This document shows, piece after piece, positions 55,196 to 64,000 of a stretch of 64,000 bases of DNA (position 1 is the first letter of the stretch; the number at the start of each line of letters is the position of its first letter). Source of the stretch: Escherichia coli. GTDB taxonomy: Bacteria > Pseudomonadota > Gammaproteobacteria > Enterobacterales > Enterobacteriaceae. A program made the position numbers and the translations under genes. The stretch lies in the NCBI RefSeq assembly GCF_009931435.1, contig NZ_CP043415.1. One strand, 5' to 3'. The notes under the pieces were generated by a model. The model made no database searches, was not told where the DNA came from, and saw only the letters and a list, made by a program, of their open reading frames with translations.

Positions 55196-56152
55196 TTTGC
55201 GGGGGGTGAACCGTTGCATCTCTCCGGAGGTTTTTGGTCATCAGCTCAGGGAACAAGTAAAGAGCTGGACAGGACTCGCCATGGGGGTGGGCATTGCACC
55301 TACAAAAACGCTGGCCAAAAGTGCACAGTGGGCAACAAAGCAATGGCCACAGTTTTCCGGTGTGGTCGCGCTGACGGCAGAAAACCGTAATCGGACCTTC
55401 AAGTTACTGGGGCAGCAGCCTGTTGGTGAAGTCTGGGGAGTAGGACGCAGACTGACGGAAAAGCTGAATGCGCAGGGTATTAACACAGCGCAGCAGCTGG
55501 CGCAGGCTAACACGGCATTCATCCGGAAAAACTTCAGCGTCATTCTTGAGCATACAGTACGCGAACTCAACGGCGAGTCCTGCATATCTCCGGAAGAAGC
55601 CCCACCGGCAAAACAGCAGATTGTCTGTAGCCGCAGTTTTGGTGAACGAATCACAGACAAAGATGCCATGCACCAGGCTGTTGTTCAGTATGCAGAGCGG
55701 GCCGCAGAGAAACTACGTGGGGAGCGTCAGTATTGCCGGCAGGTGGCGACATTTATACGAACGTCACCCTTTGCAGTGAAAGCCCCTGTTACAGCAATTC
55801 CGCTGTGGAAAAGCTTCCATTGCCTACACAGGACAGCCGGGACATTATTGCCGCAGCATGCAGAGCGTTAAACCATGTCTGGCGTGAAGGGTACCGCTAT
55901 ATGAAGGCAGGAGTCATGCTGGCTGATTTCACACCATCGGGTATAGCGCAGCCGGGATTATTTGATGAAATCCAGCCCCATAAAAACAGCGAAAAGTTAA
56001 TGAAAACACTCGATGAACTGAACCAGTCGGGAAAAGGGAAAGTGTGGTTTGCGGGGCGAGGAACCGCCCCTGAATGGCAAATGAAACGGGAAATGTTGAG
56101 TCAGTGTTATACAACTAAATGGCGAGATATTCCCCTGGCCAGGCTGGGTTAG
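55167..56152 (+). pseudogene. impB: impB (UmuC-like) remnant: 5' ~100 codons absent, plus a frameshift near 55780
   Basis: Track ORFs 55167-55871 and 55733-56152 together align to UmuC from about residue 100 onward; no N-terminal catalytic region between impA and this point. Confidence 0.75.
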
Positions 56153-57956: not shown

Positions 57957-58265
57957 TTATTGACCTATTGCGCCATCACGTTCAAGCTTCTCTCTTATAG
58001 CCTCAATAATATATGAGCTAAAATCCAGAGATGTTTTACTGGTCGCTTTAAGTTCCGCATGAGCTTCAAAATACGACAGCGGTATGGCCTTAAGATTCTT
58101 AGCCTTCGTCCTGGCGGCCACGGGACGACCTGAAACTTCCTCTGTACCTTCATTTGGCTGAGACGGGACTGTTGCTGTTACGGCAGAAGAAGAAGTTTGT
58201 AATCTGGCAGAATCCACCAGGTTTTTCAGTTTTTCAGCCTGTGCACTAAATTTCGCTTTGCTCAT
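57957..58265 (-). CDS. Small partition adaptor (ParG-like ribbon-helix-helix), candidate partner of the ParA ATPase
   Basis: 102 aa directly downstream of the ParA-like gene; C-terminal DFSSYIIEAIREKL. Confidence 0.5.
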   Translation of the reverse strand: MSKAKFSAQAEKLKNLVDSARLQTSSSAVTATVPSQPNEGTEEVSGRPVAARTKAKNLKAIPLSYFEAHAELKATSKTSLDFSSYIIEAIREKLERDGAIGQ

Positions 58266-59177: not shown

Positions 59178-59540
59178 TTAAGGAATTCTTTTGAGCATAG
59201 ACACCGCATCGGACTCAAGCATCGAAAACTGCACCCGGTGCCGTGCAGCCACATCCAGTGCAAATACCTTCGTGTAGACCTCCGTTGAACTGATGGACTT
59301 ATGCCCCATCAGGCTCTGCAGGACCTTCAGCGGTATACCGACATACAGCATGTGCATCGCATAGGAATGGCGGAACGTATGTGGCGTGACCGGGACAGAT
59401 AACGTCACACCGTCAGCGGTAACCGCTTCCCCAATCCAGGCCCTGACCGTTCTGTCCGTCACTTCCCAGATCCGCGCTTTCTCTCTCCTGCCTGTCCGTT
59501 TATTACGCCGTTCCATGGGGATTTTCAGTGTGGCCACCAT
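59178..59540 (-). pseudogene. Tyrosine recombinase (XerC/D-like) C-terminal catalytic fragment
   Basis: HTFRHSYAMHML (HxxR box), LMGHKSISSTEVYTKV (catalytic Tyr); in-frame TAG about 20 codons upstream of the ATG and no intact N-terminal domain. Confidence 0.6.
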
Positions 59541-59941
59541 CGTCTGCAGCTGGCTGACGTACCAAGAGTCGGAGAGCGGAACCAGCCGGTGAGTCTACTG
59601 CCCGGCTGGCGTTCTTCCTGCCGTCCTGGCTGCTTTTTCTGTCCGCTGCTTCAGAGTGACCAGCAGGTATTTTGGCAGTTCATCATGAACCATCGACATA
59701 TCCCTCAGTGAAGAGGAGGCTTATGGATGGTGTCGCTGCGGTAATTTCAGAACGTGCCATCATCCGTCCTGTATAGCGCATCTTCCTGCAGAAGGGTTTC
59801 AGCCGCCGCGGTAATAAATGCTCGTACCGTGCAGATAGCATTCTGCACACTCCCCGAACTGATATACACGGGTTCAAGAGATTCGGTAACTCCATCACGG
59901 TGTACCAGTGCGTTTCGGACCTTGATTACCCTCTCAAGTTC

Positions 59942-60526
59942 CTACAAAGGCCACTCATGCGGTGTTGCCAGCATCGTTGAAAAATACCGATCTATCACTT
60001 TGTGGCTCTGAAACGTTTTCTTCGCCACAAGAGACTGAGCTCGCCAGGTATAAACCTTCTCAGGAGTGGCTGTATCCGGTTCCTGCTCGACCCATTTGGA
60101 AGCACGTAATTTTCTTCTGTCTTCCTTATTAGCAATCAGCGAATCAGCTACCTGCAGAAATCGCTGCAAATGTGGAGGATGATTAAGAAGTGCCCTTGCG
60201 CTGTACATCAGAAAACTGTCCAACACACTCACACAATGAACGTAAGCCATTCGCTCCACAATTCCCGGTTGGTTGAACTGCATCAGGTTCTCTAACTCAA
60301 ACAATTCATCTTTTGCATCCTGCAGACGGTCAGGAATACTGGCAAGCGAAGCCTCAAAATATTGCTGCTCAGCCGCCTCTTCCATCCAGTCCTGAAACCA
60401 GCTGTATTCCTGTGCTGCCGCATCCCATTCAGGAGTTCCTTCCTCAGCATCCGTGTAATTTTCCGCAATCCATTCATCAGTGCGTTCTTCCTGAATTTCA
60501 AACAGCAGTTCTTTCATTTTTCCCAT
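59942..60526 (-). CDS. Hypothetical protein, 194 aa, acidic N-terminus
   Basis: ORF track only. Confidence 0.5.
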   Translation of the reverse strand: MGKMKELLFEIQEERTDEWIAENYTDAEEGTPEWDAAAQEYSWFQDWMEEAAEQQYFEASLASIPDRLQDAKDELFELENLMQFNQPGIVERMAYVHCVSVLDSFLMYSARALLNHPPHLQRFLQVADSLIANKEDRRKLRASKWVEQEPDTATPEKVYTWRAQSLVAKKTFQSHKVIDRYFSTMLATPHEWPL

Positions 60527-60714
60527 TTATACCTCACTGAATCTCCTGAAATCCCGCCTGGCATTTGTCTGTGCTCATTCCAGGATTAGATTTATTCAGT
60601 ATCCATGCTTGGCGTAATGTGATGCGATGTTTTTATCCAGAGGTATACCGCACGAAAGCATGAACCGCCCCGGAAATCCTGGAGACTAAACTCCCTGAGA
60701 AAGAGGTAAACAGG

Positions 60715-61041
60715 ATGACTAAAAATACTCGTTTTTCCCCCGAAGTCCGTCAACGCGCAGTTCGTATGGTTCTGGAAAGTCAGGGCGAATATGACTCACA
60801 GTGGGCGGCAATTTGTTCCATTGCCCCAAAGATTGGCTGTACGCCGGAGACTCTGCGTGTCTGGGTTCGCCAGCATGAGCGGGATACCGGGGGCGGTGAT
60901 GGTGGGCTCACCAGCGCTGAACGTCAGCGTCTGAAAGAGCTGGAACGTGAAAATCGTGAACTGCGCTGCAGTAACGATATCCTTCGCCAGGCTTCCGCTT
61001 ATTTTGCGAAGGCGGAGTTCGACCGCCTCTGGAAAAAATGA
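60715..61041 (+). CDS. IS629 OrfA
   Basis: 108 aa [26 protein letters not shown]... Confidence 0.95.
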
Positions 61042-61928
61042 TGCCACTGCTGGATAAGCTGCGTGAGCAGTACGGGGTCAGACCGGTATGCAGCGAACTG
61101 CATATTGCCCCGTCAACGTATTACCATTGTCAGCAACAGCGACATCATCCGGATAAACGCAGTGCCCGTGCGCAGCACGATGACTGGCTGAAGAAAGAGA
61201 TACAGCGCGTATACGATGAAAATCACCAGGTATACGGTGTGCGTAAAGTCTGGCGTCAGTTGTTACGGGAAGGTATCAGAGTGGCCAGATGCACTGTGGC
61301 ACGTCTCATGGCAGTTATGGGACTTGCCGGTGTTCTCCGGGGTAAAAAGGTCCGCACTACCGTCAGCCGGAAAGCCGTTGCCGCATGCGACCGCGTAAAC
61401 CGTCAGTTCGTGGCAGAACGTCCAGACCAGTTGTGGGTGGCTGATTTTACCTGGGTAAGCACATGGCAGGGCTTCGTTTATGTGGCGTTCATCATTGATG
61501 TGTTCGCCGGATACATCGTGGGATGGCAGGTCTCATCATCCATGGAAACAACATTCGTGCTGGATGCACTGGAGCAGGCGTTGTGGGCCCGTCGGCCGTC
61601 CGGCACAATCCATCACAGTGATAAAGGTTCTCAGTATGTATCGCTGGCCTACACGCAGCGGCTTAAGGAAGCCGGATTACTGGCATCAACAGGGAGTACT
61701 GGCGACTCGTATGACAACGCGATGGCGGAGAGCATCAATGGTCTTTACAAAGCGGAGGTAATACACCGTAAGAGCTGGAAAAACCGGACAGAAGTGGAAC
61801 TGGCCACACTAACGTGGGTGGACTGGTATAACAATCGACGATTGCTGGGAAGGCTGGGCCATACTCCTCCGGCAGAAGCAGAAAAAGCTTATTATGCTTC
61901 CATCGGAAACAATGATCTGGCAGCCTGA
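61038..61928 (+). CDS. IS629 OrfB (DDE transposase catalytic part)
   Basis: 296 aa integrase-core ORF overlapping orfA. Confidence 0.95.
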
Positions 61929-62031
61929 GTTCACAGATAAAACACTCTCCAGGAAACCCGGGGCGGTTCATTCAGTGGTGAACAGTCCATTCCGGAGACG
62001 GAATATCTTGTTAAGGCTGTATATTATACTG

Positions 62032-62073
62032 GCTGTAAACAACATGGCCACCAAGGACCATGTTGTTTACAGC
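62032..62073. other. 16-bp perfect inverted repeat hairpin between IS629 and the iutA stop
   Basis: GCTGTAAACAACATGG ... CCATGTTGTTTACAGC; no adjacent U-run. Confidence 0.4.
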
Positions 62074-62099
62074 ATACCCTTGTTACAAAAGAATCCCCG

Positions 62100-64000
62100 T
62101 CAGAACAGCACTGAGTAGTTCAGACCAAAGGTTCGGCCCCGGCCTTTGTAGTCGTACAGTGAAGCAGGGCCGTAACCCGGGCTGTAGTACAGAGGTGCAC
62201 GCTGTCCCCAGACAGTGGTATAGTCACGGTCGAAGAGGTTCTCAACGCTGAAGCTGAGTGTTCCCACCGGAAGCAGCCAACTACTGATAAAATCGACGGT
62301 AGTGTAACCATTAATATCGTTACCCTCTGCATCGCTTACGTCGAAAGAAGTGGTGCTCTGCACACGCAGACTCCACGGTTCCGGCGCCCAGCTAATGTAA
62401 GCTGTCGCTTTCGATGGACTTGATTCCTTCACGTCATATTTTTGCCATTGACCGTTCACTTTCGACTCGGTTTTCAGCACATTGAAGTTCACACCGGTAC
62501 TCCAGTCAGTATCCGGGATCAGGTAGTCCACCGCACCTTCCACGCCGTAAATACGGCGCCTGTCGTCCTTCACACTGATGGTCAGATCTTTATTCCTTTC
62601 CACGCTCTTATTGGAAAGCGAGTAATATGCTGCGATTTGAGTCCGCAGGTTGTCACCGGTAAAGCGCCAGCCCAGTTCATAAGAATCGACTTTCACGCCT
62701 TCCAGCTTACTGTCGCTGACGTTCACGCTCTTTGTCAGGGGAAGATGGCCGTTCACTGCTGCACCATAGATGCCGCGACCATAATATTTCCCCGGATCCG
62801 GCAATGCCACCCCCTGGGAAAAATTGAACCATGCCTGCTGACGTTCGGTGATGTGCATCAGCAGACCAGCATTGAACAGAAAGTTATCGTAATCTACCGA
62901 ACCACCAGGAATGGCGTCGGCAGATATCGCCTTCCCGGCAGCAATCTTCTGTTGCTGCATGTAGTCGATAAAATCATCTACCCTGTTCTCAGTATACTGA
63001 TAGCGTACGCCACCGCTGACGGTAAAAATATCATTAATGTCATAGCTGGATTGCAGGAAGGCCGCCAGATTGGTGATGTCATATGACGGATAGCGCCCGG
63101 TGGTGTAAATCTTATGGTTGTTCAGCCCTCCGGAAGCACTTGCCTGAGCCAGATCGAAGAACATCTGGTTGGAGGTAAAGCGCTCATGCTCAGCATCCAG
63201 CCCCCAGGTGATTTGCCAGCCGTCCATCAGTTGGCTGTTCAGAGTCAGTTTCATGCCGTACTGGTCGGTATCCTGCTGTGACGAGGAGAAAGCCGTCGCC
63301 TGTTTATTCGCATTTACCGTCGGGAACGGGTAGAACCGCAACGACTCATCGCGGTAGTAAACCTGACCGACCAGTTCCTGTCTCAGGAAATCACTGTCAG
63401 AGTACTGCAGGCTGATCAAATGCCGCTCAGTGCCGGGAATGCGGTCAGAATTCAGCCCCTTACTGACGTATGGTGTGCTGCTCCCGCTGATGGCGGAAAA
63501 GCCTTTCCCGAGATTAAGCCCGTAATTGTCGTCCCCCTGACTTTTATAGTACTGCGTTATCAGTTGAAGCTGCCGGGATTCATCGATGTTCAGCGTACCG
63601 GTTCCCATGATGTCCAGCCGATTGGAGTGCTGCAGGCCGGTCTGGGTGTTATCAAGCAGGGTAGCATCGCCGTTACCGTCAAACCAGCCGCCAAATTTCT
63701 GATATGCCACGGAAAGACGTCCGGAGATATGGTCATTTCCGCCGGAGACAGCACCGGCAATGCGCTCATCGTGATCTTTACTGCTGTTAAAGCCACTTTT
63801 TGTGCCAGCCTCAAACTCCATCATGGTTTCCGGCTGGCCTTTTTTGGTCACGATGTTTATCAACCCTCCGGTACTCCCGCCACCGTACAGGGCCGTCGCG
63901 CCGGAGATCACTTCAATATGGTCGATATTAAAAGGATCGACAGAGTCCAGTTGTCGGCTGTCGGAACGTGAAGAGTTGAGGCGCACACCGTCAATCAGGA
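62100..64000 (-). CDS. iutA: IutA aerobactin TonB-dependent receptor, 3' portion (N-terminus beyond window end)
   Basis: Matches IutA over more than 600 aa as remembered; C-terminus ...RTFGLNYSVLF. Confidence 0.93.
   Translation of the reverse strand, partial: LIDGVRLNSSRSDSRQLDSVDPFNIDHIEVISGATALYGGGSTGGLINIVTKKGQPETMMEFEAGTKSGFNSSKDHDERIAGAVSGGNDHISGRLSVAYQKFGGWFDGNGDATLLDNTQTGLQHSNRLDIMGTGTLNIDESRQLQLITQYYKSQGDDNYGLNLGKGFSAISGSSTPYVSKGLNSDRIPGTERHLISLQYSDSDFLRQELVGQVYYRDESLRFYPFPTVNANKQATAFSSSQQDTDQYGMKLTLNSQLMDGWQITWGLDAEHERFTSNQMFFDLAQASASGGLNNHKIYTTGRYPSYDITNLAAFLQSSYDINDIFTVSGGVRYQYTENRVDDFIDYMQQQKIAAGKAISADAIPGGSVDYDNFLFNAGLLMHITERQQAWFNFSQGVALPDPGKYYGRGIYGAAVNGHLPLTKSVNVSDSKLEGVKVDSYELGWRFTGDNLRTQIAAYYSLSNKSVERNKDLTISVKDDRRRIYGVEGAVDYLIPDTDWSTGVNFNVLKTESKVNGQWQKYDVKESSPSKATAYISWAPEPWSLRVQSTTSFDVSDAEGNDINGYTTVDFISSWLLPVGTLSFSVENLFDRDYTTVWGQRAPLYYSPGYGPASLYDYKGRGRTFGLNYSVLF

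Follow-up and report, generated by a model that had tools for sequence, protein, structure and literature searches.

An IS629 copy beside iutA as the probable left arm of a compound aerobactin element inserted in a decaying Escherichia coli plasmid region

We propose that the IS629-type insertion sequence (IS) at positions 60661-61970 of the 64,000-nt Escherichia coli stretch analysed here, hereafter the window, whose coordinates are used throughout, is the intact left arm of a compound element of about 12.1 kb, ordered IS629-iutA-iucDCBA-MFS-dIS629, with a GCA target duplication lying outside its two arms. The block carries an aerobactin cluster and ends in dIS629, a second IS629-type copy that lacks its 5′ end. 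We give this architecture, which is common to the one-step and two-step routes of arrival weighed below, a probability of about 0.9. The window ends inside iutA, and the right arm was read in relatives only. The features at the left end of the element are as follows.

60658..60660, no strand: left copy of the target duplication, GCA, which recurs directly 3′ of dIS629 in 4 of 4 plasmids
60661..61970, plus strand: intact IS629-type element (IS3 family), 1310 bp, proposed left arm of the compound element
60661-60685 and 61946-61970: left and right terminal inverted repeats (IRL and IRR), 25 bp each
60715-61041, plus strand: orfA, 108 aa, HTH_Tnp_1, intact
60996-61112: ALIL frameshift pseudoknot (Rfam, 117.8 bits)
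61038-61928, plus strand: orfB, 296 aa, HTH_21 and rve, intact
61971..62099, no strand: spacer downstream of iutA, 129 bp
62100..64000, minus strand: iutA, 3′ part, first gene of the cargo (receptor for ferric aerobactin), running off the window

The copy at 60661-61970 is the only IS629 in the 64 kb. Its terminal repeats carry 2 mismatches over 25 bp and are unique in the window, with none expected by chance; its ends read TG...CA, and orfB lies in the -1 frame relative to orfA, an arrangement that RefSeq annotates as a programmed frameshift. The type was assigned against RefSeq-annotated copies rather than the ISfinder reference sequence, and on that basis the element shares 95.8% identity with the IS1203-annotated copy of E. 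coli O111:H- 11128 and no more than 99.0% with other plasmid copies; IS629 sub-types have been reported to differ by 4-5% (PMC3271280). IS629 generates target duplications of 3-4 bp (PMC3271280), and the flanks of this single copy, left GCA (60658-60660) and right TTC (61971-61973), form no direct repeat. An earlier sequence-only reading had described both the clean terminal repeats and the unmatched flanks correctly, and had taken them to suggest that an adjacent deletion or IS-mediated recombination had joined the aerobactin region to the plasmid maintenance region.

The partner of the left GCA is found in related plasmids. The 4.1 kb around the IS and the neighbouring recombinase gene are 99.7-100% identical to 15 conjugative IncFIA/FIB(/FIC) plasmids of E. 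coli, nearly all from cattle, veal or yak, and the last 17.4 kb of the window are 99.94% identical to one plasmid, pNADC1036IncF, which elsewhere carries cnf2, cdt-III and F17 fimbrial genes. Past iutA, pNADC1036IncF continues with iucDCBA, an MFS transporter gene and dIS629, in the same orientation as the first copy and 10.8 kb from it. dIS629 comprises IS positions 271-1310, the first 270 bp being absent, and differs from the window IS at 3 positions (99.7% identity); the two are the only IS629-type copies in the 142 kb of pNADC1036IncF examined, and the whole unit measures 12,143 bp. To the right of dIS629 the sequence reads GCA|TGACCGGATTTTT, that is, GCA followed by TGACCGGATTTTTATCAGTGGG..., and this distal junction is identical in all four plasmids in which it was read and present in one piece in 12. 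The second IS629 copy that the sequence-only reading recommended looking for is therefore present in the relatives, and the 3-bp duplication that it had found missing lies some 12 kb away, outside the window, around the 12.1-kb unit rather than around the single IS. A matching duplication, which that reading had named as grounds for its own rejection, thus exists at the level of the unit.

The empty site is preserved as well. In pRM11911, which has no IS at this position, the backbone reads ...CGAAAGCA|TGACCGGATTTTT (...CCGCACGAAAGCA|TGACCGGATTTTTATCAGTGGG..., continuing TGACCGG...); this plasmid is 98.6% identical to the window on the left side, and its next 2.9 kb are 95.6% identical to the DNA right of dIS629. 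A backbone match that begins exactly at the junction occurs in 8 plasmids, pRM11911 and at least 7 others. With one GCA at the empty site, two at the occupied site and zero backbone bases lost, the duplication must bracket the whole unit. When the left and right IS flanks were joined as a query no record covered both, so that these flanks were never contiguous. Since the window cuts a 12-kb unit, its lone arm is bordered by target DNA on the left and by cargo (TTC...) on the right. The sequence-only reading was right that IS629 joined the aerobactin and maintenance regions; the deletion and the scar that it added to this are not supported, the backbone being continuous and the GCA repeated. 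The unit has the features of a compound transposon, namely two copies of one IS around a cargo, an intact outer IRL on the left copy and IRR on the right copy, and intact orfA and orfB. Past window position 64000 we would therefore expect iucDCBA, the MFS gene and IS629 positions 271-1310, followed by GCATGACCGGATTTTTATCAGTGGG.

The cargo has counterparts on chromosomes. At its tested 3′ end, iutA shows about 85% identity to most plasmid-borne iutA of E. coli, Klebsiella and Salmonella, and reaches 99-100% only in this plasmid group and in E. coli chromosomal islands. An IS629/IS1203 end adjoins this type of iutA in 234 complete E. coli genomes, mostly chromosomes of E. coli that produce Shiga toxin (STEC), of serogroups O111, O26, O103 and O145. 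Both O111:H- 11128 and the cattle strain SMN152SH1 have an IS629-type copy or remnant, iutA-iucDCBA, the MFS gene and a dIS629 with the identical truncation point, and the non-IS DNA of the module differs between those chromosomes and the plasmid by 18-19 mismatches in 9793 bp (99.8% identity). As the same module and the same truncation are found on chromosomes, the module pre-existed and its distal arm came along with it. Judged by its sequence, the cargo is the chromosomal-type aerobactin module of STEC islands. The sequence-only reading had recommended a comparison with ColV/IncF plasmids; the relatives are IncF plasmids but not ColV plasmids, as the gene content of pNADC1036IncF and the divergence of most plasmid iutA indicate.

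The left arm, on the other hand, is not the chromosomal one. On the chromosomes the left-arm IS ends 86 bp further from iutA than the window IS (74 bp in O145 RM9872), and these copies differ from the window IS at 4-5 sites in the last 240 bp and at 47-55 over the whole element; on position and sequence the window IS is therefore a separate IS629 variant that sits closer to iutA. Derivation of the window IS from the chromosomal copy by a simple adjacent deletion of 86 bp is ruled out by those 4-5 terminal differences and by the whole-IS identity of only 95.8%. When the spacer at 61971-62099 was compared with two other loci (L004, 6200-6290; L027, 1700-1790), IS629-type right ends near the iutA stop were seen at 0 bp (these plasmids), +74 bp (O145 RM9872) and +86 bp (O111, O26, O103 and others), all in one orientation, which suggests that this short spacer has undergone repeated insertion of IS629 or change adjacent to the IS. 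Just 3′ of the iutA stop, and kept between iutA and the IS, lies an inverted repeat of 16 bp (62032-62047 and 62058-62073), perfect and with a loop of 10 nt, which is probably the iutA terminator.

On the backbone side the insertion adjoins three damaged genes, whose lesions bear on how the region was formed.

59178..59699, minus strand: resD pseudogene (tyrosine recombinase), start region MSM kept, with in-frame deletions of 96 bp and 156 bp, a CAG>TAG change and a 9-bp deletion
59178..59540, minus strand: open reading frame (ORF) formed by the last 120 codons of resD, 120 aa
59747..60526, minus strand: footprint of a 259-aa gene, putatively HEPN-fold, cut to 194 aa (59942-60526) by a coding-strand C>T at 59944 (CAG to TAG)
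60596..60660, minus strand: 3′ fragment of an insertion-split 98-aa ORF, its last ~21 codons and stop, the remainder lying beyond dIS629 outside the window

ResD is the rfsF multimer resolvase (PMC4398462), and the lesions of the window gene were mapped by alignment with the intact 260-aa relative in pE7476_162, which is 95% identical to F-plasmid ResD over 243 aa (in F the gene lies directly downstream of ccdAB), and with pRM11911. The sequence-only reading had seen that only the C-terminal 120 aa are open, with a TAG about 20 codons upstream; indeed the ORF matches the C-terminal part of Pfam Phage_integrase (profile 106-168 of 172, E 4.7e-14) and an in-frame TAG, from CAG, stands at 59595-59597, 19 codons upstream of its ATG. 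In RefSeq this stretch is entered as 'tyrosine-type recombinase/integrase, internal stop, incomplete'. The first deletion, of 96 bp, joins two ATGTCGATG repeats, provided that the ancestor had the F-like internal sequence, and the second, of 156 bp, removes ...WNTGARINEAL..., the segment with the first catalytic arginine (box-I arginine, Arg-I). The catalytic set of the remnant is accordingly incomplete: HTFRHS (the H-x-x-R box) and the tyrosine of ...EVYTKV are kept and the Arg-I segment is gone. Both large deletions and the TAG are already present in pRM11911, which lacks the IS, so that the decay is older than the insertion and unrelated to it. The gene has decayed in place with its start codon retained, and is not part of a rearrangement scar as had been supposed. 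An intact recombinase paralogue, 47% identical, lies beside RepFIB in the relatives and may cover the lost resD function.

The neighbouring 194-aa product is acidic (pI 4.7; 35 D+E against 20 K+R) and has no Pfam match, as the sequence-only reading had reported when it left the protein without a function. It is not a complete gene, however, but the product of a later nonsense truncation of a 259-aa protein. The homologous codon is CAG in pRM11911 and GAG in pE7476_162, and the proteins of these two plasmids are 256-259 aa long; pRHB40-C03_2 combines the IS junctions of the window with CAG and a 259-aa ORF, its sole difference there being G for A at window 59944. This dates the nonsense change after the insertion. 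The protein family is confined to Enterobacterales, with 68 clusters in which full length is the norm, and has a nearly invariant R-[NQ]-x-L-V-H-R-N-G that fits the HEPN motif Rx4-6H, R201 and H206 being present in 29 of 30 members. The window stop falls about 9 codons before the conserved R-N-x-L-V-H (Rx4H), leaving the truncated product without the motif. A weak PADLOC match to RTasHEPN covers residues 171-209 (E 0.0023). For the 259-aa protein no HEPN match was found in Pfam or NCBIfam, a PDB profile search gave nothing useful, and Foldseek against the PDB was not significant; hits to RecO (NCBIfam, 18 bits against a cut-off of 137) and HetR (E 0.85) were dismissed as noise. We assign the protein to the HEPN fold with moderate confidence.

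The plasmids compared show directly how the unit is built, its target duplication and empty site, and the order in which the events took place. First resD decayed through its two in-frame deletions and nonsense codon, before the insertion; the incoming aerobactin unit then split the 98-aa ORF, and a later CAG>TAG change truncated the 259-aa gene in the sub-lineage of the window. The damage to the neighbouring genes is independent of the IS and consists of separate small mutations. An IS-bounded block of virulence genes in an already decaying plasmid operon, ordinary mobile-element biology, is the best explanation for the region as a whole.

How the unit reached the plasmid is less certain than what it is. 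IS3-family elements move by copy-out/paste-in transposition and can form compound transposons (bioRxiv 10.1101/2023.06.07.543989), and we infer at even odds that the unit moved in one step. In such a step transposase from the full copy would act on the two outer ends, the left copy's IRL and the right copy's IRR, by copy-out/paste-in, and the whole block would insert once into the IncF backbone, inside the 98-aa ORF between the HEPN-like gene and RepFIB, duplicating GCA. The single duplication, the intact transposase and the lack of any plasmid with a solitary IS fit this route; a query made of left flank, IS, GCA and backbone found no solitary IS629 at the GCA site in PLSDB. A donor for this route should carry, outside plasmids, both dIS629 and this IS variant abutting TTCAGTGGTGAACAG. 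The same end structure would arise in two steps if a solitary IS629 first inserted at GCA and made the duplication, and homologous recombination within IS629 then brought in a chromosomal module already bracketed by IS629, by way of an excised island circle or of a plasmid-chromosome cointegrate; the intermediate would read CCGCACGAAAGCA, IS629 and GCATGACCGG within 1.4 kb. We regard this route as a serious competitor, somewhat less probable than transposition of the whole block. Chromosomal islands do supply directly repeated IS629 copies around the same cargo, the hosts are rich in IS629 (of 5,426 E. coli genomes, over 4,000 match IS629-containing queries), and dIS629 is a mosaic in the plasmids. 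In its simple version, however, the capture predicts that the right end of the chromosomal left copy and its 86-bp flank were carried in; the 86 bp are absent and the last 240 bp differ at 4-5 sites, so that a further insertion or deletion step is needed, and the solitary-IS plasmid that should mark the first step was not among the PLSDB records. The mosaic itself was observed among the sister plasmids (L006, 25182-26221; L016, L017 and L018, 883-1922), the left copy being identical in most of them: dIS629 of the yak plasmid is chromosomal-like across 868-1189 and then has the plasmid-specific bases at 1250 and 1283, and that of pNADC1036IncF resembles the left copy. This looks like gene conversion between the two arms.

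Several points weigh against the compound element moving as a unit. The mosaicism of dIS629 reflects recombination or gene conversion between IS copies, the very process that the two-step capture requires. No chromosomal donor was found with this IS variant abutting TTCAGTGG, the chromosomal copies lying 86 or 74 bp further out and differing in sequence, and the chromosomal copies of the module have different left arms and no shared duplication. The unit is known at one plasmid insertion site only, so that the case for its moving as a whole depends on one event; the right arm is known by inference from relatives, chiefly pNADC1036IncF, and in 3 of the 15 plasmids that have the left junction the right one was not seen in one piece. 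Two other accounts were weighed. That of the sequence-only reading, in which a solitary IS lost its duplication through IS-adjacent deletion or inter-IS recombination that removed backbone and truncated the recombinase as a by-product, drew on the differing flanks; moreover 26 of 47 IS629 sites in O157 genomes have no matching duplications, against 21 of 47 that do (PMC3271280), and the IS629 right ends at 0, +74 and +86 bp from iutA show that local IS-associated change does occur on the cargo side. It is refuted for practical purposes by the continuous backbone with one GCA empty and two occupied, by resD lesions that are internal and present in the IS-free pRM11911, and by the resD 5′ end and start codon still being in place. 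Poorer still are the chances that the recombinase and the 194-aa ORF are intact genes whose stops arose as base-calling or assembly errors. Nothing specific speaks for this, other than that each stop is a single C>T change. Plasmids assembled independently of one another, pRM11911 included, share identical resD deletions and the TAG, and 15 records agree with the stretch at 99.7-100% identity; 48 sequences form a database cluster of the 194-aa form, the internal stop is also annotated by RefSeq, and the resD deletions remove the first catalytic arginine whatever the stop.

The ORF that the compound element split may belong to a gene pair. It is intact in an empty-site plasmid (L002, 7303..7599), where it encodes 98 aa, shares the strand of the HEPN-like gene, stops 69 bp upstream of that gene and contains the insertion point. 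Homologues are 72-80% identical, and one of them, 78% identical, has index entries in about 4,000 blocks of the assembly collection. A small ORF of 104 and 115 aa, respectively, precedes the HEPN-like gene in pE7476_162 and in an Enterobacter plasmid (mutually related, E 1e-13), both of which have a conserved block of small ORF, HEPN-like gene, tyrosine recombinase, ParB/ParA-like genes, ParM/ParR and umuC; the 98-aa ORF matches these more distant small ORFs at borderline values (E 0.011 and 0.1), a lead only. The F plasmid has ccdAB in the same slot upstream of resD, and IncR plasmids have vagCD beside rfsF-resD (PMC9412624). It seems that resD travels with exchangeable two-gene cassettes upstream. 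By this analogy of position, the 96-115-aa ORF and the 259-aa HEPN-fold gene could conceivably form an uncharacterised toxin-antitoxin-like (addiction or defence) cassette in the ccdAB/vagCD slot, dismantled stepwise in the window together with resD, although we hold this to be an improbable proposal. The position of the nonsense codon just before Rx4H might then reflect selection against an unneutralised toxin rather than drift. Elsewhere this 78%-identical homologue of the 98-aa ORF (L022-L026, 4001-5841) precedes a 223-aa gene and a 93%-identical resD, adjoining pco copper-resistance genes; the 223-aa gene is unrelated to the HEPN-like one.

Further observations concern the rest of the backbone. 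The last 25 kb of the window are covered to at most 93% by any record in the two collections searched. Positions 39001-40780 are unmatched in the closest plasmid relatives, whose matches start at query position 1780 or later of those 25 kb, and here the replicon of the window differs from all records in both collections. The 102-aa ORF at 57957-58265 (minus strand), directly 3′ of the ParA-like ATPase gene, carries the RefSeq name 'molecular chaperone GroEL' and has no Pfam match; by its position it is more likely a small DNA-binding partner of ParA, and the GroEL label looks like a misannotation. According to the annotation of a near-identical relative, the umuC gene adjoining parMR (55733-56152 and upstream; L006, 8603-9570) is frameshifted and N-terminally incomplete, with a group II intron (ltrA) upstream of it. 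This damage and the intron are further decay and invasion of the same backbone block.

The model gives a route, an IS629-bounded block, by which the chromosomal-type aerobactin cluster of STEC islands would have come onto conjugative virulence plasmids of bovine E. coli, relatives of which carry CNF2, CDT-III and F17. An aerobactin composite transposon flanked by IS3-family elements has already been described in Klebsiella (PMC9997749), and our literature search found no description of the present IS629-aerobactin unit. The main value of the present analysis is the documentation of an empty site and a target duplication for a unit that is common to chromosomes and bovine virulence plasmids. 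It also provides a caution for sequence scans, in that a lone arm of a compound element will always appear to be without a duplication when the window cuts the element. Finally, the pair of small ORF and HEPN-fold gene upstream of resD is a testable candidate for a new plasmid module of addiction or defence.

Compared with known systems, the 259-aa family resembles HEPN proteins such as HEPN/MNT toxins and the sacsin HEPN domain in its Rx4-6H motif. It differs from them in its lack of a Pfam, NCBIfam or PDB sequence match and of a significant Foldseek match, in an extra acidic helical region of about 80 aa at the N-terminus, and, with respect to HEPN/MNT, in having a 96-115-aa protein as its partner rather than an MNT nucleotidyltransferase; the window copy, in addition, has lost the Rx4H motif. 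The recombinase is akin to the ResD/rfsF system of F, since its intact relative is 95% identical and likewise stands directly downstream of a two-gene cassette that has the same orientation. Unlike F resD, the window gene is a pseudogene with a premature stop and its box-I arginine region deleted, it adjoins parA/parMR rather than RepFIA, and the relatives of its plasmid have the 47%-identical intact paralogue by RepFIB. The window IS shares with IS629/IS1203/IS3411 its length of 1310 bp, TG...CA ends, 25-bp repeats, -1 frameshift between orfA and orfB, ALIL pseudoknot and 3-bp duplication, and is a sequence variant of them. As for the unit as a whole, two known systems likewise have an aerobactin operon between two copies of one IS on a conjugative F-type plasmid, with one or both arms truncated. 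One is pColV-K30, where the region is flanked by IS1. The other is the iuc3 composite transposon of Klebsiella plasmids, flanked by truncated copies of the IS3-family ISKpn78-like element (PMC9997749). In contrast to both, the unit described here has directly oriented IS629 arms, one intact and one without its first 270 bp, a cargo of E. coli chromosomal-type iuc/iutA, and a clean 3-bp duplication with its documented empty site.

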